The notes under the pieces were generated by a model. It was not told the DNA's origin. It saw nothing but the letters and a program-made list of their open reading frames with translations, and did not search any database. This document shows, one piece after another, positions 25,938 through 54,912 of a stretch of DNA of 64,000 bases. Every line of letters starts with the position of its first letter. Within the stretch, counting starts at the first letter, position 1. This stretch comes from Escherichia coli (GTDB lineage Bacteria; Pseudomonadota; Gammaproteobacteria; Enterobacterales; Enterobacteriaceae): NCBI RefSeq assembly GCF_001677475.2, contig NZ_CP015229.1. One strand, given 5' to 3'. The translations under genes were made by a program, and so were the position numbers.

Positions 25938-26588
25938 TCAGAAAATGCGCTCCTGATGCACCCATACCGCTGCTTCCACGCGAGACTTGAGCTTCATTTT
26001 CTTCAGCATGTGCTTGACGTGCACTTTTACTGTGCTTTCGGTGATGTCCAGGCGGCGGGCAATCATCTTGTTCGGCAAACCCTGGGCAATCAGCTTGAGA
26101 ATATCGCGCTCGCGTGGGGTTAACTGGTTAACATCGCGTTCAGTAGTGGCACGGTTAGCGCGCAAGCTGGCGGCCAGAACAGGCGTTAATGCTTCGCTTA
26201 ATACCATTTCGCCAGCAGCTGCCTGATGTAACGCTTTCAGCAGATCTTCCGGTTCCATATCTTTTAACAGATAGCCATCCGCGCCGCGTTTCAGTGCGGT
26301 GACCACATCTTCTTCATGGTTAGAAACGCTGAATACCACAATGCGCCCGGAGAGGGACTTTTCGCGCAGTTTATCCAGCGTTTCCAGACCGTTCATGCCG
26401 GGCATATTGAGATCTAACAGGATCAGATCGGGATCAAGAGATTCCGCCAGTTCAATACCCTGTTCGCCATTACTCGCTTCGCCAACCACGGTGATATCTG
26501 GTGCCATACTGATAAGCTGTTTTACGCCAGTTCGCAGCATCGGGTGATCGTCGATCAGCAGGATAGTAGCCGGTTCCTGATTACTCAT
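25938..26588 (-). CDS. narL: nitrate/nitrite response regulator NarL
   Basis: ORF 25938..26702; start trimmed to [19 protein letters not shown]..., 216 aa; REC + LuxR HTH; AAGGAG RBS. Confidence 0.95.
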
Positions 26589-28377
26589 GGGTATCTCCTT
26601 GGACGTCTGTGAAAGTTTTTTCGGGAATAAAGGTGACCACCACTTCGGTGCCACCTGATTCACGACGGCGGACGCGGCAATCGCCTCGTAAACTTTGCGC
26701 ACGGTCGCGCATTATTATCATGCCGTAGTGATTGCTGCGGATGGCATTTTCAGGCACGCCGCAGCCGTTATCCTGGACGGTCAGTTTGACCTGATTATCG
26801 TTTTGCGCCACCGTCACCACGACCTCACTCGCTTGCGAATGCTTGAGGGCGTTACTTAATGCCTCACGGGCAATTTGCAACAAGTGGATTGCCTGATGCG
26901 AAGGCACCAGACGAGGCGGCAATTGATAATCCAGCTTCACCGGGAAGCCAAATTTGGCGCTGTACTCTTCGCAACTCGCCTCCAGCGCCGGACGTAATCC
27001 AGGCTCGGTGAGCTGCAAACGGAATGTGGTGAGCAATTCACGCAACTGCGCCCAGGATGCATTCAGTTCGTTACGGATCTGACTTAACAGTTCGCGGCTG
27101 CTTTCTGGCAGCGCATCGCCCTGCATCTGTAAACAACTCACCTGCATCTTCATGCAAGAGAGAGATTGGGCAATAGAATCATGCAGTTCGCGCGCAATGG
27201 TGGCACGCTCTTCCATCACGATCAACTGTTGCTGACGTTCCTGATGGCGATCCAACGCCAGCGTGGCGGTGAGTTGTTCAACCAGGGTATCCACCAGTTG
27301 TTGTTGATCATGGCTAAGATGACGCCCCTGCGGCAGGGTCGCCAGCAAAATACCGTACTGCGTATGAGAGTCAGCCAGCCGCCACTTCAGGGTCGTGCCG
27401 CGATCACCAACGGGTAATACGCCGCGCGGGCAGAGCTGGCAGCCTTTATCATCACAAGTCATATCTGGCTGGCAGGTAAACTCCTGATGATTCTCTTCAT
27501 CATCAGTGTCATACACCCGCAGTTCGATATCACGTAGGAGGGTTAAATTCTGTAAGCCGTTGAGTACAGGTGACAGGCGTTCACACAGCGGGGCGCGGGA
27601 ATGCAAACGGCGGTTAGCCTGCCATAAAAAAGAGAGGATCTGATTTTTATGCTCCAGCCCGGCCGTTTTCTCCTGAACCCGCTGCTCAAGTACGGCATAA
27701 CTTTCGGCCAGTTCTGCAGACATATTGTTCAACGCAGTTCCAAGCATCGCCATTTCGTTGCGCCCGCTGATGTTCGCGCGTTGGGTAAAATCGCGATGGC
27801 TGACGGCACTCGCCATTACCAGCAGTTGCCGCCACGGTTGTAGCAGTCGCGCCCGCAACCAGATAATAGTGAACACCAGTAAAAGTGCCATAAATACCGC
27901 CATTACCCGATGGACCAGTACCACTGTCTCAATACGCATTTCCGTGGTGCGGTCAAAACCAGATACCAGCTGATCAAGCCCGGCAACAAACTGGCTGACA
28001 TCCGCTGACACCGTTTCGCGGTTTTGTGCACGCATTAGTGCAGGGATCAGTTCATTACGCCAGTAATCTTGTAAACCCTGTAATTGCGCCAGTTGTCCGT
28101 CTCGTTCTGCTGCTCGGGTTAACTCGGCGCTAAATGCTGTTTGTTCCATCTCTTTAATTAAGGGCTTGTCTTTCTCGCTTAATGGCACTGCTGCCAACAG
28201 ACGGTAACTTTGCATGCGCAGCGATCCCGCTTTGTTGATCGCATGGGCGCTGCCCTGAACGCCTTGCACCAGCCAGCCAGAAACCGCCATCCCTGCTAGT
28301 CCAATAGCAGTAGAAAGCAACACAATAAGCGCAACCTGATTAACCAGGGTGAGCGGAGAGAGACAACGTTTAAGCAT
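26581..28377 (-). CDS. narX: nitrate/nitrite sensor histidine kinase NarX
   Basis: 598 aa; two TM, HAMP, HisKA_3 (ELHDSIAQ), HATPase; overlaps narL by 8 nt. Confidence 0.95.
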
Positions 28378-30499: not shown

Positions 30500-33400
30500 A
30501 TGAGTAAATTCCTGGACCGGTTTCGCTACTTCAAACAGAAGGGTGAAACCTTTGCCGATGGGCATGGCCAGCTTCTCAATACCAACCGTGACTGGGAGGA
30601 TGGATATCGCCAGCGTTGGCAGCATGACAAAATCGTCCGCTCTACCCACGGGGTAAACTGCACCGGCTCCTGCAGCTGGAAAATCTACGTCAAAAACGGT
30701 CTGGTCACCTGGGAAACCCAGCAGACTGACTATCCGCGTACTCGCCCGGACCTGCCAAACCATGAACCTCGCGGCTGCCCGCGCGGTGCCAGCTACTCCT
30801 GGTATCTTTACAGTGCCAACCGCCTGAAATACCCGATGATGCGCAAACGCCTGATGAAAATGTGGCGTGAAGCGAAGGCGCTGCATAGCGATCCGGTTGA
30901 GGCATGGGCTTCTATCATTGAAGACGCCGATAAAGCGAAAAGCTTTAAGCAGGCGCGTGGACGCGGTGGTTTTGTTCGTTCTTCCTGGCAGGAAGTGAAC
31001 GAACTGATCGCCGCATCTAACGTTTACACCATCAAAAACTACGGCCCGGACCGTGTCGCTGGTTTCTCGCCAATTCCGGCAATGTCGATGGTTTCTTACG
31101 CATCGGGTGCGCGCTATCTCTCGCTGATTGGCGGTACTTGCTTAAGCTTCTACGACTGGTACTGCGACCTGCCTCCTGCGTCTCCGCAAACCTGGGGCGA
31201 GCAAACTGACGTACCGGAATCCGCTGACTGGTACAACTCCAGCTACATCATCGCCTGGGGTTCAAACGTGCCGCAGACGCGTACCCCGGATGCTCACTTC
31301 TTTACTGAAGTGCGTTACAAAGGCACCAAAACTGTTGCCGTCACACCAGACTACGCTGAAATCGCCAAACTGTGCGATCTGTGGCTGGCACCGAAACAGG
31401 GCACCGATGCGGCAATGGCGCTGGCGATGGGCCACGTAATGCTGCGTGAATTCCACCTCGACAACCCAAGCCAGTATTTCACCGACTATGTTCGTCGCTA
31501 CACCGACATGCCGATGCTGGTGATGCTGGAAGAGCGCGACGGTTACTACGCCGCGGGTCGTATGCTGCGCGCTGCCGATCTGGTGGATGCGCTGGGCCAG
31601 GAAAACAATCCGGAATGGAAAACTGTCGCCTTTAATACCAATGGCGAAATGGTTGCGCCGAACGGTTCTATTGGCTTCCGCTGGGGCGAGAAGGGCAAAT
31701 GGAATCTTGAGCAGCGCGATGGCAAAACTGGCGAAGAAACCGAGCTGCAACTGAGCCTGCTGGGTAGCCAGGATGAGATTGCTGAGGTGGGCTTCCCGTA
31801 CTTTGGTGGCGACGGTACTGAACACTTCAACAAAGTGGAACTGGAAAACGTGCTGCTGCACAAGCTGCCGGTGAAACGCCTGCAACTGGCTGATGGCAGC
31901 ACCGCACTGGTGACCACCGTTTATGATCTGACGCTGGCAAACTACGGTCTGGAACGTGGCCTGAACGACGTTAACTGTGCAACCAGCTATGACGATGTGA
32001 AAGCTTACACCCCAGCCTGGGCTGAGCAGATCACCGGCGTTTCTCGCAGCCAGATTATTCGCATCGCCCGTGAATTTGCCGATAACGCTGATAAAACGCA
32101 CGGTCGTTCGATGATTATCGTCGGTGCGGGGCTGAACCACTGGTATCACCTGGACATGAACTATCGCGGTCTGATCAACATGCTGATTTTCTGCGGCTGT
32201 GTCGGTCAGAGCGGGGGCGGCTGGGCGCACTATGTAGGTCAGGAAAAACTGCGTCCGCAAACCGGCTGGCAGCCACTGGCGTTTGCCCTTGACTGGCAGC
32301 GTCCGGCGCGTCACATGAACAGCACTTCTTATTTCTATAACCACTCCAGCCAGTGGCGTTATGAAACCGTGACTGCGGAAGAACTGCTGTCGCCGATGGC
32401 GGATAAATCCCGTTATACCGGACACCTGATCGACTTTAACGTCCGTGCAGAACGCATGGGCTGGCTGCCGTCTGCACCGCAGTTAGGCACTAACCCGCTG
32501 ACTATTGCTGGCGAAGCAGAAAAAGCGGGCATGAATCCGGTGGACTATACGGTGAAATCCCTGAAAGAGGGTTCAATCCGTTTTGCTGCGGAACAGCCGG
32601 AAAACGGCAAAAACCATCCGCGTAACCTGTTTATCTGGCGTTCTAACCTGCTGGGCTCTTCCGGTAAAGGTCATGAGTTTATGCTCAAGTACCTGCTGGG
32701 GACGGAACACGGTATCCAGGGTAAAGATCTGGGGCAGCAGGGCGGCGTGAAGCCGGAAGAAGTGGACTGGCAGGACAATGGTCTGGAAGGCAAGCTGGAT
32801 CTGGTGGTGACGCTGGACTTCCGTCTGTCGAGCACCTGTCTCTACTCCGACATCATTTTGCCGACGGCGACCTGGTACGAAAAAGACGACATGAATACTT
32901 CGGATATGCATCCGTTTATTCACCCGCTGTCTGCGGCGGTCGATCCGGCCTGGGAAGCGAAAAGCGACTGGGAAATCTACAAAGCTATCGCGAAGAAATT
33001 CTCCGAAGTGTGCGTTGGTCATCTGGGTAAAGAAACCGACATCGTTACGCTGCCAATTCAGCACGACTCCGCCGCTGAACTGGCGCAGCCGCTGGATGTG
33101 AAAGACTGGAAAAAAGGCGAATGCGATCTGATCCCAGGTAAAACCGCACCGCATATTATGGTGGTTGAGCGTGATTATCCGGCCACTTACGAACGCTTTA
33201 CCTCAATCGGCCCGCTGATGGAGAAAATCGGCAACGGCGGTAAAGGGATTGCCTGGAACACCCAGAGCGAAATGGATCTGCTGCGTAAGCTCAACTACAC
33301 CAAGGCTGAAGGTCCAGCGAAAGGCCAGCCGATGCTCAACACCGCAATTGATGCGGCAGAGATGATCCTGACGCTGGCACCGGAAACCAATGGTCAGGTA

Positions 33401-34243
33401 GCTGTAAAAGCCTGGGCTGCCCTGAGCGAGTTTACCGGCCGTGACCATACGCATCTGGCGCTGAATAAAGAAGACGAGAAGATTCGCTTCCGCGATATTC
33501 AGGCACAGCCGCGCAAAATTATCTCCAGCCCGACCTGGTCTGGTCTGGAAGATGAACACGTTTCTTACAACGCCGGTTACACCAACGTTCACGAGCTGAT
33601 CCCGTGGCGTACGCTCTCTGGTCGTCAGCAGCTGTATCAGGATCATCAGTGGATGCGTGATTTCGGTGAAAGCCTGCTGGTTTATCGTCCGCCGATCGAT
33701 ACCCGTTCGGTGAAAGAAGTGATGGGCCAGAAATCCAACGGTAACCCGGAAAAAGCCCTGAACTTCCTGACGCCACACCAGAAGTGGGGTATCCACTCCA
33801 CTTACAGCGACAACCTGCTGATGCTGACTTTAGGTCGCGGTGGGCCTGTGGTCTGGCTGAGCGAAGCCGATGCTAAAGATTTGGGTATTGCCGACAACGA
33901 CTGGATTGAAGTCTTCAACAGCAACGGTGCGTTGACTGCCCGTGCGGTTGTCAGCCAGCGTGTTCCGGCAGGGATGACCATGATGTACCACGCGCAGGAA
34001 CGTATCGTTAACCTGCCTGGTTCGGAAATCACGCAGCAGCGTGGGGGGATTCATAACTCGGTCACCCGTATCACGCCGAAACCGACGCATATGATCGGTG
34101 GCTATGCCCATCTGGCATACGGCTTTAACTACTACGGCACCGTAGGTTCTAACCGCGATGAGTTTGTTGTGGTGCGTAAGATGAAGAACATTGACTGGTT
34201 AGATGGCGAAGGCAATGACCAGGTACAGGAGAGCGTAAAATGA
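30500..34243 (+). CDS. narG: respiratory nitrate reductase A, alpha subunit
   Basis: 1247 aa, MSKFLDRFRYFKQKGETFADGHGQ..., molybdopterin oxidoreductase. Confidence 0.97.
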   Translation: MSKFLDRFRYFKQKGETFADGHGQLLNTNRDWEDGYRQRWQHDKIVRSTHGVNCTGSCSWKIYVKNGLVTWETQQTDYPRTRPDLPNHEPRGCPRGASYSWYLYSANRLKYPMMRKRLMKMWREAKALHSDPVEAWASIIEDADKAKSFKQARGRGGFVRSSWQEVNELIAASNVYTIKNYGPDRVAGFSPIPAMSMVSYASGARYLSLIGGTCLSFYDWYCDLPPASPQTWGEQTDVPESADWYNSSYIIAWGSNVPQTRTPDAHFFTEVRYKGTKTVAVTPDYAEIAKLCDLWLAPKQGTDAAMALAMGHVMLREFHLDNPSQYFTDYVRRYTDMPMLVMLEERDGYYAAGRMLRAADLVDALGQENNPEWKTVAFNTNGEMVAPNGSIGFRWGEKGKWNLEQRDGKTGEETELQLSLLGSQDEIAEVGFPYFGGDGTEHFNKVELENVLLHKLPVKRLQLADGSTALVTTVYDLTLANYGLERGLNDVNCATSYDDVKAYTPAWAEQITGVSRSQIIRIAREFADNADKTHGRSMIIVGAGLNHWYHLDMNYRGLINMLIFCGCVGQSGGGWAHYVGQEKLRPQTGWQPLAFALDWQRPARHMNSTSYFYNHSSQWRYETVTAEELLSPMADKSRYTGHLIDFNVRAERMGWLPSAPQLGTNPLTIAGEAEKAGMNPVDYTVKSLKEGSIRFAAEQPENGKNHPRNLFIWRSNLLGSSGKGHEFMLKYLLGTEHGIQGKDLGQQGGVKPEEVDWQDNGLEGKLDLVVTLDFRLSSTCLYSDIILPTATWYEKDDMNTSDMHPFIHPLSAAVDPAWEAKSDWEIYKAIAKKFSEVCVGHLGKETDIVTLPIQHDSAAELAQPLDVKDWKKGECDLIPGKTAPHIMVVERDYPATYERFTSIGPLMEKIGNGGKGIAWNTQSEMDLLRKLNYTKAEGPAKGQPMLNTAIDAAEMILTLAPETNGQVAVKAWAALSEFTGRDHTHLALNKEDEKIRFRDIQAQPRKIISSPTWSGLEDEHVSYNAGYTNVHELIPWRTLSGRQQLYQDHQWMRDFGESLLVYRPPIDTRSVKEVMGQKSNGNPEKALNFLTPHQKWGIHSTYSDNLLMLTLGRGGPVVWLSEADAKDLGIADNDWIEVFNSNGALTARAVVSQRVPAGMTMMYHAQERIVNLPGSEITQQRGGIHNSVTRITPKPTHMIGGYAHLAYGFNYYGTVGSNRDEFVVVRKMKNIDWLDGEGNDQVQESVK

Positions 34244-35778
34244 AAATTCGTTCACAAGTCGGCATGGTGCTGAATCTCGATAAGTGCATCGGCTGCCACA
34301 CCTGTTCAGTTACCTGTAAAAACGTCTGGACCAGCCGCGAAGGCGTGGAATACGCGTGGTTCAACAACGTGGAAACCAAGCCGGGCCAGGGCTTCCCTAC
34401 TGACTGGGAAAACCAGGAAAAATACAAAGGTGGTTGGATCCGTAAAATCAACGGCAAACTGCAACCGCGCATGGGTAACCGAGCCATGCTGCTGGGTAAA
34501 ATCTTCGCTAACCCGCATCTGCCGGGGATCGACGATTATTACGAGCCGTTCGATTTTGATTATCAGAACCTGCATACCGCGCCGGAAGGCAGCAAATCGC
34601 AGCCGATTGCCCGTCCGCGTTCGCTGATTACTGGCGAACGGATGGCGAAAATCGAAAAAGGGCCGAACTGGGAAGATGACCTGGGCGGCGAGTTTGACAA
34701 ACTGGCGAAAGACAAGAACTTCGACAACATCCAGAAGGCGATGTATAGCCAGTTCGAAAACACCTTCATGATGTATTTGCCGCGTCTGTGCGAACACTGC
34801 CTCAACCCGGCATGTGTGGCGACCTGTCCGAGCGGGGCTATCTACAAACGTGAAGAAGATGGCATCGTACTGATCGATCAGGATAAATGCCGTGGCTGGC
34901 GTATGTGCATCACCGGATGCCCGTACAAAAAAATCTACTTCAACTGGAAGAGCGGTAAATCTGAGAAGTGCATCTTCTGCTATCCGCGTATTGAAGCCGG
35001 TCAGCCGACGGTGTGCTCAGAAACCTGTGTGGGTCGTATCCGTTATCTTGGCGTGCTGTTGTACGATGCCGACGCTATTGAACGTGCAGCCAGCACCGAG
35101 AACGAGAAAGATCTCTACCAGCGTCAGCTGGAAGTGTTCCTCGACCCGAACGATCCGAAAGTCATCGAGCAAGCGATTAAAGACGGTATTCCGCTGAGCG
35201 TTATTGAAGCCGCACAACAGTCGCCGGTGTATAAAATGGCGATGGAATGGAAACTGGCGCTGCCGCTGCATCCGGAATATCGCACATTGCCGATGGTCTG
35301 GTACGTGCCGCCTCTGTCACCGATTCAGTCTGCGGCAGACGCGGGCGAACTGGGCAACAACGGCATTTTGCCAGACGTAGAAAGCCTGCGTATCCCGGTT
35401 CAGTACCTGGCGAATCTGCTGACCGCCGGTGATACCCAACCGGTACTGCTCGCGTTGAAACGTATGCTGGCAATGCGTCATTACAAACGAGCTGAAACCG
35501 TTGACGGTAAAGTTGATACCCGTGCGCTGGAAGAGGTCGGCCTGACCGAAGCCCAGGCACAGGAGATGTACCGTTATCTGGCAATTGCAAACTACGAAGA
35601 TCGCTTTGTGGTGCCGAGTAGCCATCGTGAACTGGCGCGGGAAGCCTTCCCGGAGAAAAATGGTTGTGGCTTTACCTTTGGTGACGGCTGCCACGGTTCA
35701 GATACCAAATTCAATCTGTTCAACAGCCGTCGTATCGATGCCATCGACGTGACCAGTAAAACGGAGCCGCATCCATGA
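34240..35778 (+). CDS. narH: respiratory nitrate reductase A, beta subunit (Fe-S)
   Basis: 512 aa with Cys clusters (CIGCHTCSVTC...); ATGA overlap with narG. Confidence 0.97.
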   Translation: MKIRSQVGMVLNLDKCIGCHTCSVTCKNVWTSREGVEYAWFNNVETKPGQGFPTDWENQEKYKGGWIRKINGKLQPRMGNRAMLLGKIFANPHLPGIDDYYEPFDFDYQNLHTAPEGSKSQPIARPRSLITGERMAKIEKGPNWEDDLGGEFDKLAKDKNFDNIQKAMYSQFENTFMMYLPRLCEHCLNPACVATCPSGAIYKREEDGIVLIDQDKCRGWRMCITGCPYKKIYFNWKSGKSEKCIFCYPRIEAGQPTVCSETCVGRIRYLGVLLYDADAIERAASTENEKDLYQRQLEVFLDPNDPKVIEQAIKDGIPLSVIEAAQQSPVYKMAMEWKLALPLHPEYRTLPMVWYVPPLSPIQSAADAGELGNNGILPDVESLRIPVQYLANLLTAGDTQPVLLALKRMLAMRHYKRAETVDGKVDTRALEEVGLTEAQAQEMYRYLAIANYEDRFVVPSSHRELAREAFPEKNGCGFTFGDGCHGSDTKFNLFNSRRIDAIDVTSKTEPHP

Positions 35779-36485
35779 TCGAACTCGTGATTGTATCGCG
35801 TCTCCTTGAATATCCGGATGCTGCCTTATGGCAGCATCAACAAGAGATGTTTGAGGCGATTGCCGCGTCGGAAAATCTGTCAAAAGAGGATGCCCATGCG
35901 CTGGGCATTTTCCTGCGCGATTTAACGGCGATGGATCCGCTCGATGCTCAGGCCCAGTACAGCGAACTGTTCGATCGTGGTCGCGCCACGTCGCTGTTGC
36001 TGTTTGAGCACGTTCACGGGGAATCCCGCGATCGCGGTCAGGCGATGGTGGACCTGCTGGCACAGTACGAGCAGCACGGTTTGCAGTTAAACAGCCGCGA
36101 ATTGCCGGACCACCTGCCGCTGTATCTGGAGTATCTGGCGCAGCTGCCGCAAAGCGAAGCCGTGGAGGGTTTGAAAGATATTGCGCCGATTCTGGCATTG
36201 CTGAGCGCGCGTCTGCAACAGCGTGAAAGCCGTTATGCCGTGCTGTTTGATCTGCTGCTGAAACTGGCCAATACCGCTATCGACAGTGACAAAGTGGCGG
36301 AAAAAATTGCCGACGAAGCGCGCGACGATACGCCGCAGGCGCTGGATGCTGTCTGGGAAGAAGAGCAGGTTAAATTCTTTGCTGACAAAGGCTGCGGTGA
36401 TTCAGCAATCACTGCTCATCAGCGTCGCTTTGCCGGTGCCGTCGCGCCGCAATATCTGAATATCACCACCGGAGGACAGCACTAA
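35775..36485 (+). CDS. narJ: nitrate reductase assembly chaperone NarJ
   Basis: 236 aa; overlaps narH stop. Confidence 0.95.
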
Positions 36486-37346: not shown

Positions 37347-37880
37347 TGGTGGTGGGGGAAGGATTACTCAGCGCTGCGTGCTTCACCCTTCGGGTCGTTG
37401 CCTGCGGCAACGCTCTCTCGCTGGCGCTCGAGTCGAACCTTGGTCGAAGCTTCTCATCCTTCCCCGCTTGGGCAGAATATTTAATTACGGATTCGTTTGA
37501 GAGTTCAGGGACTTTTGAAAGTTATGGTGGTGGGGGAAGGATTACTCAGCGCTGCGCGCTTCGCCCTTCGGGTCGTTGCCTGCGGCAACGCTCTCTCGCT
37601 GGCGCTCGAGTCGAACCTTGGTCGAAGCTTCTCATCCTTCCCCGCTTGGGCAGAATATTTAATTACGGATTCGTTTGAGAGCTCAGGGACTTTTGAAAGT
37701 GATGGTGGTGGGGGAAGGATTACTCAGCGCTGCGTGCTTCACCCTTCGGGTCGTTGCCTGCGGCAACGCTCTCTCGCTGGCGCTCGAGTCGAACCTTGGT
37801 CGAAGCTTCTCATCCTTCCCCGCTTGGGCAGAATATTTAATTACGGATTCGTTTGAGAGTTCAGGGACTTTTGAAAGTGA
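37347..37880 (-). repeat. three tandem 178-bp repeats in the distal tyrT operon (rtT/tpr region), each beginning with 19 nt identical to the tRNA-Tyr 3' end
   Basis: Units at 37347, 37525, 37703; next period at 37881 is the tRNA gene; partial degenerate copy at about 37321-37346. Confidence 0.9.
37546..37635 (-). CDS. tpr: Tpr-like Arg-rich 29-aa peptide ([29 protein letters not shown]) in the middle repeat
   Basis: Hand-translated minus-strand ORF; the same frame in the two flanking repeats stops after 24 aa. Confidence 0.5.
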
Positions 37881-37965
<85 letters not shown>

Positions 37966-51042: not shown

Positions 51043-51963
51043 ATGTTAAAATTTATTCTACGTCGCTGTCTGGAAGCGATTCCGACGCTATTTATTCTTA
51101 TTACTATTTCGTTCTTTATGATGCGCCTCGCGCCGGGAAGCCCTTTTACCGGCGAACGTACTTTACCGCCTGAAGTGATGGCCAATATCGAAGCGAAATA
51201 TCATCTTAATGATCCGATCATGACACAGTATTTCAGCTACCTGAAACAACTGGCGCACGGTGATTTCGGTCCATCGTTTAAATATAAAGATTATTCGGTC
51301 AATGACCTGGTGGCATCCAGTTTTCCCGTTTCTGCCAAACTGGGAGCCGCAGCATTTTTCCTTGCGGTAATACTGGGTGTTAGTGCTGGCGTTATTGCCG
51401 CATTAAAACAAAACACCAAATGGGACTATACCGTGATGGGGCTGGCAATGACCGGGGTTGTTATCCCCAGTTTTGTGGTTGCGCCATTATTAGTCATGAT
51501 ATTTGCGATCATTTTGCATTGGCTGCCGGGCGGTGGCTGGAATGGTGGGGCGCTTAAATTCATGATATTGCCGATGGTGGCGTTGTCACTCGCCTATATC
51601 GCCAGTATTGCGCGTATTACCCGTGGCTCTATGATTGAGGTTTTACACTCCAACTTTATTCGTACTGCCCGGGCGAAAGGGTTACCTATGCGGCGGATCA
51701 TTTTACGCCACGCATTAAAACCTGCTCTGTTACCCGTGCTCTCCTATATGGGCCCCGCATTTGTCGGCATTATTACCGGTTCTATGGTCATCGAAACCAT
51801 TTATGGTTTGCCGGGGATTGGGCAATTGTTCGTTAATGGCGCATTGAACCGTGACTATTCCTTAGTGTTAAGCCTGACCATCCTGGTTGGTGCGTTAACC
51901 ATTTTGTTTAATGCCATTGTCGATGTGCTATATGCGGTTATCGACCCGAAAATCCGTTACTGA
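51043..51963 (+). CDS. oppB: oligopeptide ABC transporter permease OppB
   Basis: 306 aa, six TM, ABC permease signature. Confidence 0.95.
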   Translation: MLKFILRRCLEAIPTLFILITISFFMMRLAPGSPFTGERTLPPEVMANIEAKYHLNDPIMTQYFSYLKQLAHGDFGPSFKYKDYSVNDLVASSFPVSAKLGAAAFFLAVILGVSAGVIAALKQNTKWDYTVMGLAMTGVVIPSFVVAPLLVMIFAIILHWLPGGGWNGGALKFMILPMVALSLAYIASIARITRGSMIEVLHSNFIRTARAKGLPMRRIILRHALKPALLPVLSYMGPAFVGIITGSMVIETIYGLPGIGQLFVNGALNRDYSLVLSLTILVGALTILFNAIVDVLYAVIDPKIRY

Positions 51964-51977
51964 TACTGGAGCTCGCG

Positions 51978-52886
51978 ATGATGTTAAGTAAGAAAAACAG
52001 CGAGACGCTGGAAAATTTCAGTGAAAAGCTGGAGGTCGAAGGGCGCAGCTTGTGGCAGGACGCACGTCGACGTTTTATGCATAACCGTGCGGCGGTTGCC
52101 AGTCTGATAGTGCTGGTGCTGATCGCGTTATTTGTAATCCTGGCACCGATGCTTTCGCAGTTTGCCTATGACGATACTGACTGGGCGATGATGTCCAGCG
52201 CCCCGGATATGGAGTCCGGTCACTACTTTGGTACTGACTCATCCGGTCGCGACCTGCTTGTGCGCGTTGCGATTGGCGGGCGTATCTCACTCATGGTCGG
52301 TGTTGCTGCGGCACTGGTGGCAGTGGTCGTGGGGACACTTTACGGTTCGCTTTCCGGTTATCTGGGCGGTAAAGTGGATTCGGTAATGATGCGTCTGCTG
52401 GAAATCCTCAACTCCTTCCCATTCATGTTCTTCGTCATTTTGCTGGTGACCTTTTTCGGTCAAAACATCCTGCTGATTTTCGTGGCGATTGGCATGGTTT
52501 CCTGGCTGGATATGGCTCGTATTGTGCGTGGGCAAACCCTGAGTCTGAAGCGCAAAGAGTTTATTGAGGCGGCACAAGTTGGTGGTGTATCGACGCCGGG
52601 CATTGTTATTCGCCACATTGTGCCGAACGTACTCGGTGTGGTGGTGGTCTACGCATCGCTTCTGGTGCCCAGCATGATCCTCTTTGAATCTTTCCTTAGC
52701 TTCCTGGGGTTGGGTACGCAAGAGCCGTTAAGCAGCTGGGGGGCATTGCTGAGTGATGGCGCGAACTCGATGGAAGTCTCTCCATGGTTACTGTTGTTCC
52801 CAGCGGGATTCCTCGTGGTGACGCTGTTTTGTTTCAACTTTATCGGCGATGGCTTGCGTGATGCCCTCGACCCGAAAGATCGTTAA
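51978..52886 (+). CDS. oppC: oligopeptide ABC transporter permease OppC
   Basis: 302 aa. Confidence 0.95.
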   Translation: MMLSKKNSETLENFSEKLEVEGRSLWQDARRRFMHNRAAVASLIVLVLIALFVILAPMLSQFAYDDTDWAMMSSAPDMESGHYFGTDSSGRDLLVRVAIGGRISLMVGVAAALVAVVVGTLYGSLSGYLGGKVDSVMMRLLEILNSFPFMFFVILLVTFFGQNILLIFVAIGMVSWLDMARIVRGQTLSLKRKEFIEAAQVGGVSTPGIVIRHIVPNVLGVVVVYASLLVPSMILFESFLSFLGLGTQEPLSSWGALLSDGANSMEVSPWLLLFPAGFLVVTLFCFNFIGDGLRDALDPKDR

Positions 52887-52897
52887 GGAGTGCAGCC

Positions 52898-53911
52898 ATG
52901 AGCGTAATTGAAACTGCAACTGTGCCGCTCGCACAACAACAGGCTGACGCACTGCTGAACGTGAAAGATTTGCGCGTCACCTTTAGTACCCCGGACGGCG
53001 ACGTCACGGCGGTCAATGATTTGAATTTTTCCCTACGTGCCGGAGAAACGCTGGGCATTGTGGGTGAGTCTGGCTCGGGTAAATCGCAAACTGCATTTGC
53101 GTTGATGGGCCTGTTGGCTGCTAACGGACGTATTGGCGGATCGGCAACCTTCAATGGGCGTGAAATCCTCAATTTGCCAGAGCGTGAACTCAATAAACTG
53201 CGCGCTGAACAAATCTCAATGATTTTTCAGGACCCAATGACTTCGTTGAATCCCTATATGCGCGTCGGTGAGCAGTTGATGGAAGTGCTGATGCTGCATA
53301 AGAACATGAGCAAAGCTGAGGCGTTTGAAGAGTCGGTGCGGATGCTCGATGCGGTAAAAATGCCGGAAGCGCGTAAACGCATGAAAATGTACCCGCACGA
53401 ATTTTCTGGCGGCATGCGTCAACGAGTCATGATTGCGATGGCATTGCTATGTCGACCTAAGCTGCTGATTGCGGATGAACCCACTACTGCGTTGGACGTC
53501 ACCGTACAGGCGCAGATCATGACGCTATTGAATGAACTGAAGCGTGAATTTAATACCGCCATCATTATGATCACCCACGATCTTGGCGTGGTGGCGGGGA
53601 TCTGTGACAAAGTGCTGGTAATGTACGCCGGGCGCACGATGGAATATGGCAACGCGCGCGATGTCTTTTATCAACCCGTTCATCCTTATTCTATCGGTTT
53701 GCTCAACGCGGTGCCGCGTCTCGATGCGGAAGGTGAAACAATGTTGACCATCCCGGGTAATCCGCCAAACCTGCTGCGATTACCGAAAGGTTGCCCGTTC
53801 CAGCCACGTTGTCCGTATGCGATGGAAATTTGTAGTAGCGCACCGCCGCTGGAAGAGTTTACGCCTGGCCGTCTGCGTGCTTGCTTTAAACCGGTGGAGG
53901 AACTGTTATGA
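52898..53911 (+). CDS. oppD: oligopeptide ABC transporter ATPase OppD
   Basis: 337 aa, Walker A GESGSGKS, signature FSGGMRQR. Confidence 0.95.
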   Translation: MSVIETATVPLAQQQADALLNVKDLRVTFSTPDGDVTAVNDLNFSLRAGETLGIVGESGSGKSQTAFALMGLLAANGRIGGSATFNGREILNLPERELNKLRAEQISMIFQDPMTSLNPYMRVGEQLMEVLMLHKNMSKAEAFEESVRMLDAVKMPEARKRMKMYPHEFSGGMRQRVMIAMALLCRPKLLIADEPTTALDVTVQAQIMTLLNELKREFNTAIIMITHDLGVVAGICDKVLVMYAGRTMEYGNARDVFYQPVHPYSIGLLNAVPRLDAEGETMLTIPGNPPNLLRLPKGCPFQPRCPYAMEICSSAPPLEEFTPGRLRACFKPVEELL

Positions 53912-54912
53912 ATGCTGTAACCGAAGGAAGAAAAGTTCTCCTCGAAATCGCCGATCTGAAAGTGCACTTTGAAATCAAAGATGGCAAGCAGTGGTTCTGG
54001 CAACCGCCGAAAACTCTCAAAGCCGTCGATGGTGTAACTCTTCGCCTGTATGAAGGGGAAACATTAGGTGTGGTAGGGGAATCGGGATGCGGTAAGTCCA
54101 CCTTTGCTCGCGCCATCATTGGCCTGGTTAAAGCGACCGACGGTCATGTTGCCTGGTTAGGCAAAGAGTTGCTGGGCATGAAGCCCGATGAATGGCGTGC
54201 CGTTCGCAGTGATATCCAGATGATTTTCCAGGATCCGTTGGCATCGCTAAACCCGCGTATGACCATCGGCGAGATCATCGCTGAACCACTGCATACTTAT
54301 CATCCGAAAATGTCACGCCTGCAAGTTCGCGAGCGCGTGAAGGCGATGATGCTGAAAGTCGGGTTATTGCCTAACCTGATTAACCGCTATCCGCATGAGT
54401 TCTCTGGTGGGCAGTGCCAGCGTATCGGGATTGCACGTGCACTTATTCTTGAACCGAAGCTGATTATCTGTGATGAGCCGGTGTCGGCGCTGGACGTGTC
54501 AATTCAGGCGCAGGTGGTCAACCTGCTCCAGCAATTGCAACGTGAGATGGGATTGTCATTAATTTTTATCGCTCATGACCTGGCCGTGGTAAAACACATT
54601 TCCGATCGTGTGTTGGTGATGTATCTCGGCCATGCGGTAGAACTGGGGACCTATGATGAGGTCTACCACAATCCCCTACATCCTTACACCAGGGCATTGA
54701 TGTCGGCAGTCCCCATACCTGATCCGGATCTGGAGAAGAACAAAACCATCCAGTTACTGGAAGGGGAATTACCGTCGCCGATCAACCCGCCTTCCGGTTG
54801 TGTTTTCCGTACCCGTTGCCCGATTGCCGGTCCGGAGTGCGCCAAAACACGTCCTGTTCTGGAGGGGAGTTTCAGACACGCCGTTTCTTGCCTGAAAGTC
54901 GATCCGCTTTAA
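53908..54912 (+). CDS. oppF: oligopeptide ABC transporter ATPase OppF
   Basis: 334 aa, Walker A GESGCGKST, signature FSGGQCQR; ATGA overlap with oppD. Confidence 0.95.
   Translation: MNAVTEGRKVLLEIADLKVHFEIKDGKQWFWQPPKTLKAVDGVTLRLYEGETLGVVGESGCGKSTFARAIIGLVKATDGHVAWLGKELLGMKPDEWRAVRSDIQMIFQDPLASLNPRMTIGEIIAEPLHTYHPKMSRLQVRERVKAMMLKVGLLPNLINRYPHEFSGGQCQRIGIARALILEPKLIICDEPVSALDVSIQAQVVNLLQQLQREMGLSLIFIAHDLAVVKHISDRVLVMYLGHAVELGTYDEVYHNPLHPYTRALMSAVPIPDPDLEKNKTIQLLEGELPSPINPPSGCVFRTRCPIAGPECAKTRPVLEGSFRHAVSCLKVDPL

Follow-up and report, generated by a model that had tools for sequence, protein, structure and literature searches.

Start/stop overlaps at eight gene junctions of an Escherichia coli genome are real and non-random, but ordinary for the species

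In bacterial operons, neighbouring genes are most often spaced such that a stop codon overlaps the start codon of the next gene. Below 7 nt, the genetic code permits just two overlaps, -1 (TAATG/TGATG) and -4 (NTGA), since genes cannot overlap in frame or by 2 or 5 nt; -8 is the class enriched next. Spacings of -4 and -1 are vastly more frequent than neighbouring ones, genome-wide as well as over 1,695 species. Gene pairs of this kind have been described as 'spatially coupled ORFs' (Huber et al., 2019, 2023; reviewed in Brown & Wade, 2025). Reporter experiments on native overlapping E. coli pairs detected translational coupling in four out of five cases (PMC6728339), and in four of five tested E. 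coli pairs reinitiation is aided by a Shine-Dalgarno sequence within the 3'-terminal part of the upstream ORF. In three native pairs, coupling was almost lost once the genes had been moved apart to about 20 nt (PMC10666635). Saito et al. (2020) report reporter coupling ratios of 1.7-7.0 over five pairs, trpB-trpA, galT-galK, rplK-rplA, rpmI-rplT and prfA-prmC. Coupling of the last of these had been documented before (Heurgue-Hamard 2002, as cited) and was measured again in PMC7538156. Whether coupling works by reinitiation or by de novo initiation that RNA unfolding facilitates is disputed. Depletion of RRF left coupling unchanged in reporters and genome-wide, which counts against reinitiation as the main mechanism.

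We analysed a stretch of 64,000 nt of E. coli DNA, referred to as the window. Direct reading and translation reveal eight co-directional neighbour pairs that overlap by 1, 4 or 8 nt (Table 1). All overlaps that the sequence-only reading had listed are present where it placed them, with correct gene names and overlap sizes. Inspected base by base, each of the eight junctions joins two genes of one orientation; the downstream start either lies over the upstream stop (NTGA/TRATG) or precedes the end of the upstream ORF by 8 nt. The -4 class, ATGA or a stop TGA over the downstream ATG, comprises narG/narH, narH/narJ, prmC/sirB2 and oppD/oppF; the -1 class comprises narJ/narI (TAATG), prfA/prmC and lolB/ispE; and narX/narL is the only -8 overlap. 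The ORFs of all eight pairs are intact, every downstream gene starts with ATG, and the overlaps leave no intergenic space between the paired genes. All eight junctions are arranged identically in the RefSeq annotation of E. coli O157:H7 F6294. The narGHJI genes follow the order alpha-beta-chaperone-gamma and their products match the solved NarGHI and NarJ structures, in agreement with the RefSeq annotation of the homologous locus; NarJ, a chaperone by annotation, is not a subunit of the final enzyme. Opposite narH/narJ there are four antisense ORFs of 129-187 aa, for which no Pfam match was found, and an Rfam search of 34-36.5 kb returned no match.

Table 1. Genes and junctions of the eight overlapping pairs, in window coordinates.
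Feature	Position	Strand	Details
narG, nitrate reductase A alpha subunit	30500-34243	+	1247 aa ORF, stop TGA 34241-34243; RefSeq annotation of orthologous locus
narG/narH junction, ATGA, -4	34240-34243	+	AGGAG Shine-Dalgarno 34227-34231 within narG
narH, beta subunit, 512 aa	34240-35778	+	aligned 1-512 with PDB 1Q16_B
narH/narJ junction, ATGA, -4	35775-35778	+	GGAG 35763-35766
narJ, molybdenum-cofactor assembly chaperone, 236 aa	35775-36485	+	stop TAA; PDB 8JZD_A alignment from residue 1; annotation
narJ/narI junction, TAATG, -1	36485-36485	+	GGAGG 36471-36475
narI, gamma subunit, 225 aa	36485-37162	+	aligned 1-225 with PDB 1Q16_C
prfA (RF1)	16305-17387	+	stop TAA, A17387 common to prmC ATG (-1)
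prmC	17387-18220	+	stop TGA over sirB2 ATG at 18217-18220 (-4)
sirB2 (ychQ)	18217-18609	+	no recognisable Shine-Dalgarno upstream, anti-SD duplex -1.7 kcal/mol
lolB	14170-14793	-	stop TAA, base 14170 common to ispE ATG (-1)
ispE	13319-14170	-	weak Shine-Dalgarno, -3.1 kcal/mol
oppD	52898-53911	+	stop TGA over oppF ATG at 53908-53911 (-4)
oppF	53908-54912	+	GGAGG Shine-Dalgarno within oppD
narX, sensor kinase	26581-28377	-	final 8 nt (26581-26588) overlap narL
narL, response regulator	25938-26588	-	AGGAG Shine-Dalgarno within narX

The window contains 30 co-directional neighbour pairs, and no overlaps besides these eight were found among them. Seven of the 18 co-directional pairs spaced between -20 and +50 sit at exactly -4 or -1 (P ~3e-7 under uniform spacing). 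On the other hand, nine of the 30 pairs (30%) are spaced between -8 and +6, compared to a published 707 of 2,987 (24%) in E. coli genome-wide (p = 0.40). The pattern is non-random, yet typical for the species.

A Shine-Dalgarno sequence lies inside the upstream coding sequence for six of the eight downstream genes, narH, narJ, narI, narL, oppF and, weakly, prmC, whereas it is absent or weak for sirB2 and ispE. Duplex energies with the anti-Shine-Dalgarno sequence are -7.4 to -9.5 kcal/mol for narH, narI, narL and oppF, -5.8 for narJ and -4.9 for prmC. When the eight overlapped starts were compared to the other 44 genes analysed, neither Shine-Dalgarno strength (p = 0.68) nor predicted accessibility of the start site, expressed as unpaired probability (p = 0.74), differed, and there is therefore no sequence mark of dependence on coupling. 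The genes concerned belong to textbook operon units, namely narGHJI, prfA-prmC-sirB2-sirB1, lolB-ispE, oppABCDF and narXL. We consider it probable that the overlaps are ordinary compact junctions of polycistronic operons, at which initiation of the downstream gene is promoted by the ribosome that terminates upstream. The downstream start codon partly coincides with the upstream stop codon or shortly precedes it, and a ribosome finishing the upstream gene would arrive directly at the downstream initiation site. There, the same ribosome or its 30S subunit could reinitiate, or the ribosome could melt local mRNA structure and so allow a free 30S subunit to bind. Since six of the eight downstream starts carry an embedded Shine-Dalgarno sequence, independent de novo initiation could supplement the coupled flux. 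Dependence on upstream translation would be most plausible for sirB2 and ispE, given their lack of such a sequence. That start/stop overlaps indicate translational coupling, as the sequence-only reading had proposed, is borne out by published experiments for prfA/prmC; at the other seven junctions we infer coupling, and its extent, from the geometry, from which it may reasonably be expected. In the literature searched, which covered that on narGHJI in part, we found no coupling experiments on these seven junctions, and a search for published coupling of narX/narL likewise found none.

Conservation of the junctions was judged from published COG-pair statistics over 1,695 species and from individual homologous loci. 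Published median spacings, each based on 223-2,274 genomes, were taken for seven of the eight orthologous pairs, prmC/sirB2 being left out, and lie at about -1 to -4: they are -1 for NarG>NarH, NarH>NarJ, NarJ>NarI, LolB>IspE and the NarX/Q-type kinase>NarL-type regulator pair, -0.1 for PrfA>PrmC and -4 for the OppD>OppF type. In Klebsiella the nar junctions are -4, -4 and -1, the narG/narH junction is identical, and oppD/oppF is at -4. When the region from -25 to +12 was compared to the rest of the genes between Escherichia and Klebsiella, narG/narH alone was more conserved than background (97th percentile), the remaining junctions ranging from the 10th to the 73rd percentile. In narZYWV, the E. 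coli paralogue of the operon that encodes nitrate reductase Z, all three junctions are overlaps, as in narGHJI, and that of narZ/narY has almost the sequence of narG/narH (caggtacaggag...ATGAAAAT). The overlap types, however, are permuted, being -4, -1, -4 in narZYWV and -4, -4, -1 in narGHJI. A spacing of -4 also occurs at narZ/narY and at narG/narH of Ralstonia and Roseinatronobacter, and the nar junctions of Ralstonia, Roseinatronobacter and Thermus range from -4 to +17. In evolution the exact overlap is labile: Klebsiella has narX/narL at +10, all nar junctions of Thermus are positive, and narG/narH of Moraxella is at +299.

The overlaps might be annotation artefacts, with the true starts further downstream (ATG at codon 9 of narH, ATG at codon 6 of narI, GTG at codon 5 of narJ) and short gaps left between the genes. 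It is true that narH, narJ and narI have in-frame alternative starts within their first ten codons. However, prmC and ispE have none within 40 codons, and in sirB2, oppF and narL the nearest one lies 16-21 codons in. Moreover, the NarH residues 1-8, MKIRSQVG, are kept in narY, Klebsiella, Moraxella, Ralstonia, Roseinatronobacter and Thermus, the N-terminal pattern MK[IV]R[SA]... reaching as far as Thermus. NarJ/NarW and NarI/NarV align from Met-1, and the PDB chains of NarH (1Q16_B, 1-512), NarJ (8JZD_A, 1-184) and NarI (1Q16_C, 1-225) begin at the same Met. Well-spaced Shine-Dalgarno sequences precede the annotated ATG of narH, narJ, narI, oppF and narL, and the RefSeq models agree. In the upstream direction, seven downstream genes have no in-frame start at all; for narL there are just GTGs, 22-38 codons upstream, and their use would extend its overlap with narX. 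We therefore regard artefactual starts as extremely improbable. Judged by these alignments, the annotated downstream starts appear genuine, since the alternatives would cut conserved N-terminal residues. The sequence-only reading had named reassignment of start codons as what would make the overlaps disappear, and we found no overlap that can be removed without deleting such residues. Re-annotation of the downstream starts was rejected in an alternative-start scan. A weightier objection is that the overlaps arose chiefly as a side effect of genome compaction and of the easy origin of NTGA/TRATG junctions, by loss of a stop codon and read-through to the next out-of-frame stop, and that the downstream genes initiate de novo on their own Shine-Dalgarno sequences with little or no coupling. 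Six of the eight downstream Shine-Dalgarno sites are indeed as good as those of first-in-operon genes, junction types flip between the narGHJI and narZYWV paralogues and are lost in other taxa, and narX/narL displays the expected origin. In Klebsiella a TAA stop ends narX before the Shine-Dalgarno site, producing the gap of +10; this stop is missing in the window, where NarX has a different, longer C-terminal tail that crosses the Shine-Dalgarno sequence and the ATG and ends at a TAA within narL codons 2-3. Published work also fits this account: bioBF, a tested overlapping pair, initiates de novo and is uncoupled, the ATGA-overlapped ftsW>murG and ftsQ>ftsA show a 2.5-3-fold higher translation efficiency of the downstream gene in published profiling data, which requires de novo initiation, and a published review ascribes the abundance of -4 overlaps largely to their ease of evolution. 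Against it stand the genome-wide and cross-species excess of -4 and -1 over neighbouring spacings, the coupling of most tested overlapping pairs, the lack of a usable Shine-Dalgarno sequence at sirB2 and ispE, and the medians of about -1 to -4 that orthologous pairs hold over hundreds of genomes. Compaction with little or no coupling is thus possible, but we consider it rather unlikely as the main account.

The sequence-only reading had called the overlaps expected for subunit-stoichiometric complexes, and they could accordingly exist specifically for equimolar synthesis of such subunits. This rationale holds for narG/narH and oppD/oppF, which encode 1:1 partners of the same stable complex and are the only two heteromeric-complex pairs among the eight in the manual curation of Huber et al. 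(2023, Table S2). It fails for the other six, narH/narJ, narJ/narI, narX/narL, prfA/prmC, prmC/ychQ (sirB2) and lolB/ispE, all of which are listed as 'CMPLX not' and combine a chaperone, an enzyme and its substrate, a kinase and its regulator, or unrelated proteins. The ribosome densities of oppD and oppF are nearly equal (260 versus 277) in the table of Burkhardt 2017, which includes oppD, oppF, prfA and lolB and lacks prmC and ispE, and heteromeric-complex partners are enriched 4.5-fold among closely spaced E. coli pairs. Yet 69.6% of such pairs genome-wide are not complex partners, the chaperone NarJ sits between two structural subunits, and the products of lolB/ispE and of prmC/sirB2 are functionally unrelated. 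As ftsQ/ftsA and ftsW/murG illustrate, overlap does not enforce a 1:1 output. We consider it unlikely that equimolar synthesis is what the eight overlaps exist for.

Promotion of downstream initiation by the terminating ribosome has a stricter form, in which sirB2 (behind prmC) and ispE (behind lolB) would receive their translating ribosomes solely from the gene in front of them. We think this very unlikely. Were it true, the output of an isoprenoid-pathway kinase would be slaved to that of an outer-membrane lipoprotein receptor, and expression of sirB2 would require RF2-mediated termination at the UGA of prmC. RF2 is activated by PrmC, and release-factor methylation and downstream expression would therefore be joined in a small feedback link.

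The overlaps are thus real, non-random, ordinary and already known. Beyond quality control, where the junctions confirm sound gene models and compact operons, their significance is small, and the literature already covers the phenomenon, the individual pairs and their phylogenetic persistence. The live question is that of reinitiation versus structure melting with de novo initiation, between which inspection of junction sequences cannot decide. All eight E. coli K-12 pairs are tabulated with the same distances in the supplementary table of Huber et al. (2023). The window strain is 1-4% diverged from sequenced E. coli genomes, and its junction geometry is nonetheless identical. Of the classically coupled E. 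coli pairs, prfA-prmC is the orthologue of a window pair, and the other seven window junctions lie outside that set. Finally, the window pairs fall into the same -4 NTGA, -1 TRATG and -8 classes as the spatially coupled ORFs, have, at six of the eight junctions, Shine-Dalgarno sequences embedded in the upstream ORF as these do, and occur at a similar frequency; in their anatomy the two do not differ.

We read the eight junctions base by base and recovered every overlap that the sequence-only reading had listed, and all eight geometries are identical in the RefSeq annotation of E. coli O157:H7 F6294. That list is also complete, as there is no further overlap among the window's 30 co-directional neighbour pairs. 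Gene models transferred from the O157:H7 annotation yielded 53 CDS, all intact and with valid starts and stops, in the Escherichia region that extends from dhaKL to ompW and includes ychF, prfA, the nar genes and opp. The stop codons of the convergent genes ychO and narL directly abut, with no base between them; the Klebsiella pair overlaps by 4 nt.

Gene junctions and other features of the window. Negative distances are overlaps; those of the first eight pairs are identical in K-12. Motif and anti-SD duplex energy refer to the Shine-Dalgarno (SD) site of the downstream gene. Published spacings are for COG pairs of the corresponding type.
Feature	Window position	Strand	Distance (nt)	SD motif	Duplex (kcal/mol)	Published median (q1, q3; n)
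narG/narH	34240-34243 (ATGA)		-4	AGGAG	-7.4	-1 (-4, +12; 366)
narH/narJ	35775-35778 (ATGA)		-4	GGAG	-5.8	-1 (-4, +2; 353)
narJ/narI	36485 (shared base, TAATG)		-1	GGAGG	-9.5	-1 (-4, +11; 351)
prfA/prmC	17387 (shared base, TAATG)		-1	AGGA	-4.9	-0.1 (-4, +15; 979)
prmC/sirB2 (ychQ)	18217-18220 (ATGA)		-4	no usable motif	-1.7	
lolB/ispE	14170 (shared base, TAATG)	minus	-1	no usable motif	-3.1	-1 (-4, +13.5; 328)
oppD/oppF	53908-53911 (ATGA)		-4	GGAGG	-9.3	-4 (-7.2, -1; 2,274)
narX/narL	26581-26588	minus	-8	AGGAG	-8.5	-1 (-4, +21; 223), NarX/Q-type kinase>NarL-type regulator
dhaK/dhaL	957-968		+10			
oppC/oppD	52886-52898		+11			
oppB/oppC	51963-51978		+14			
ychO/narL stops	25937/25938	plus/minus	0			
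ycgV	4285-7170					
rdlD copies	20615-20680; 21150-21215	plus				
RtT repeats	37347-37478; 37525-37656; 37703-37834	minus				
tRNA-Tyr	37881-37965	minus				

Reassigned start codons, named in the sequence-only reading as what would refute the overlaps, were sought in all eight downstream ORFs. Seven have no in-frame start further upstream; for the eighth, narL, the sole upstream candidates are GTGs 22-38 codons away, and using them would make the overlap longer, not remove it. Downstream, prmC and ispE offer no alternative in their first 40 codons and sirB2, oppF and narL none within 16-21 codons, while for narH, narJ and narI alternatives occur inside the first 10 codons. The NarH N-terminus (MK[IV]R[SA]Q...) is kept in NarY, Klebsiella, Moraxella, Ralstonia, Roseinatronobacter and Thermus, the NarJ/NarW and NarI/NarV alignments run from Met-1, and the solved-structure sequences 1Q16_B, 1Q16_C and 8JZD_A start at the same residues as NarH, NarI and NarJ. 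Thus, the overlaps stand.

The narGHJI genes are present in 5,414 of 5,426 complete E. coli genomes (megablast with window 30-38 kb). The segment 32000-38000, from the 3' part of narG through narI, is 96.2-97.0% identical to O157:H7 and at most 97.3% to any of ~5,420 complete genomes; most flanking 2-kb bins reach 98-99.5% to O157, and the best matches of the adjoining 38-44 kb reach 99.2%. This suggests a mosaic or recombinant origin, or a lineage absent from the complete genomes; the tract contains no indels, so junction geometry is unchanged. Downstream of the single tRNA-Tyr (region 37347-37965), RtT repeats are arrayed in tandem three times (period 178 nt), compared with two copies in the O157:H7 reference, and this variable copy number accounts for the fragmented megablast alignments of 30-38 kb. 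Neither the antisense ORFs inside narH-narI (Pfam) nor the nar overlap interval 34240-36485 (Rfam) gave a match. Elsewhere (2386-5539), the O157:H7 locus lacks a counterpart to the 3' portion of dhaR and to much of ycgV and is annotated with pseudogene fragments only; ycgV, an autotransporter gene, is here an intact 961-aa ORF. Two copies of the antitoxin sRNA rdlD (within 20600-21250) are positioned opposite the stretch in which the O157:H7 annotation has two Ldr type I toxin genes; between strains the two units are ~94-97% alike.

The overlaps exceed chance and yet are typical of the species. Exactly -4 or -1 is found in 7 of the 18 co-directional pairs spaced -20 to +50 (P ~3e-7 under uniform spacing), and pairs within -8 to +6 make up 9/30 in the window versus 707/2,987 (24%) in E. 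coli (p = 0.40). It is established that an overlap below 7 nt can only be -1 or -4: in-frame overlaps are impossible, -2 would require a stop codon whose last two bases open a start codon, and -5 a stop codon that begins with G, neither of which exists. An E. coli-specific secondary spacing class around +10 (+9 to +12) is also seen: dhaK/dhaL, oppC/oppD and oppB/oppC fall in or near it, with a Shine-Dalgarno site inside the short gap. All eight overlapping pairs are listed in the K-12 gene-pair supplementary table of Huber et al. (2023; PMC10666635), whose COG-pair spacings cover 1,695 species; the seven pairs looked up there are those with a published median in the table. The eight overlaps are ordinary and already known.

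Translational coupling, the function ascribed to the overlaps, is proven in the literature for prfA/prmC and plausible for the other seven junctions, judging by their geometry. A Shine-Dalgarno site lies inside the upstream ORF for six of the eight downstream starts. Neither Shine-Dalgarno strength (p = 0.68) nor predicted start accessibility (p = 0.74) differs between the eight overlapped starts and the other 44 genes analysed, and narG/narH is the sole junction unusually conserved against Klebsiella (97.3% versus 85% overall, 97th percentile). The sequence is thus compatible with coupling and does not demonstrate it. Among five native overlapping E. coli pairs, four were coupled and bioBF was not, and the Shine-Dalgarno site mattered in four (PMC6728339); widening the gap to ~20 nt makes coupling collapse (PMC10666635). 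The classically coupled prfA-prmC pair was re-measured with four others, the ratios across all five being 1.7-7.0. RRF depletion did not change coupling in reporters or across the genome, and the authors concluded that reinitiation is not dominant, de novo initiation helped by structure melting being more likely (PMC7538156). Huber et al. favour termination-reinitiation, and a 2025 review (Brown & Wade) leaves the choice open.

The overlaps had also been explained as expected for subunit-stoichiometric complexes. This holds for narG/narH and oppD/oppF, the only two of the eight with a heteromeric-complex flag in the PMC10666635 table, a share in line with the genome-wide 30.4%; it fails for the other six. 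NarJ is a chaperone outside the NarGHI complex, NarX/NarL are a kinase and its regulator, RF1/PrmC are substrate and enzyme, and prmC/sirB2 and lolB/ispE encode functionally unrelated products. Published K-12 ribosome densities are 259.8 for oppD and 276.7 for oppF. That data set also shows translation efficiency increasing across the ATGA-overlapped pairs ftsW>murG (0.189 to 0.478) and ftsQ>ftsA (0.17 to 0.51), and an overlap therefore imposes no equal output.

One Klebsiella record used for comparison, CP125156.1, is titled 'Klebsiella pneumoniae plasmid unnamed2', yet it carries chromosomal housekeeping genes and is 5.37 Mb long; frameshifts split prmC, ispE and hemA in it, which suggests assembly errors. 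In Klebsiella the oppD/oppF distance is -4, as in the window, and the lolB/ispE and prfA/prmC junctions read ATGATG, offering both -4 and -1 starts. The narX/narL distance there is +10, compared with -8 in the window. In Klebsiella, a TAA terminates NarX shortly ahead of the narL Shine-Dalgarno site (locus 3780-3810); the window (26581-26610) lacks this TAA, and its different, longer NarX tail crosses the Shine-Dalgarno site and ATG to end at a TAA within narL codons 2-3. The -8 overlap thus appears to derive from stop-codon loss, an example of how such an overlap can arise.

Finally, the G/H, H/J and J/I distances are -4, -1 and -4 in the paralogous K-12 narZYWV operon, -4, -4 and -1 in Klebsiella, -4, +17 and +7 in Ralstonia, -4, -4 and +12 in Roseinatronobacter, and +11, +9 and +3 in Thermus. 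On Moraxella osloensis plasmid p3 (locus 4701-5001) J/I is -4, and the 299-nt narG-narH and 73-nt narH-narJ gaps are unlike all other nar operons examined. Tight spacing persists across the sampled loci and the exact overlap is labile, in agreement with the published COG-pair spacings.
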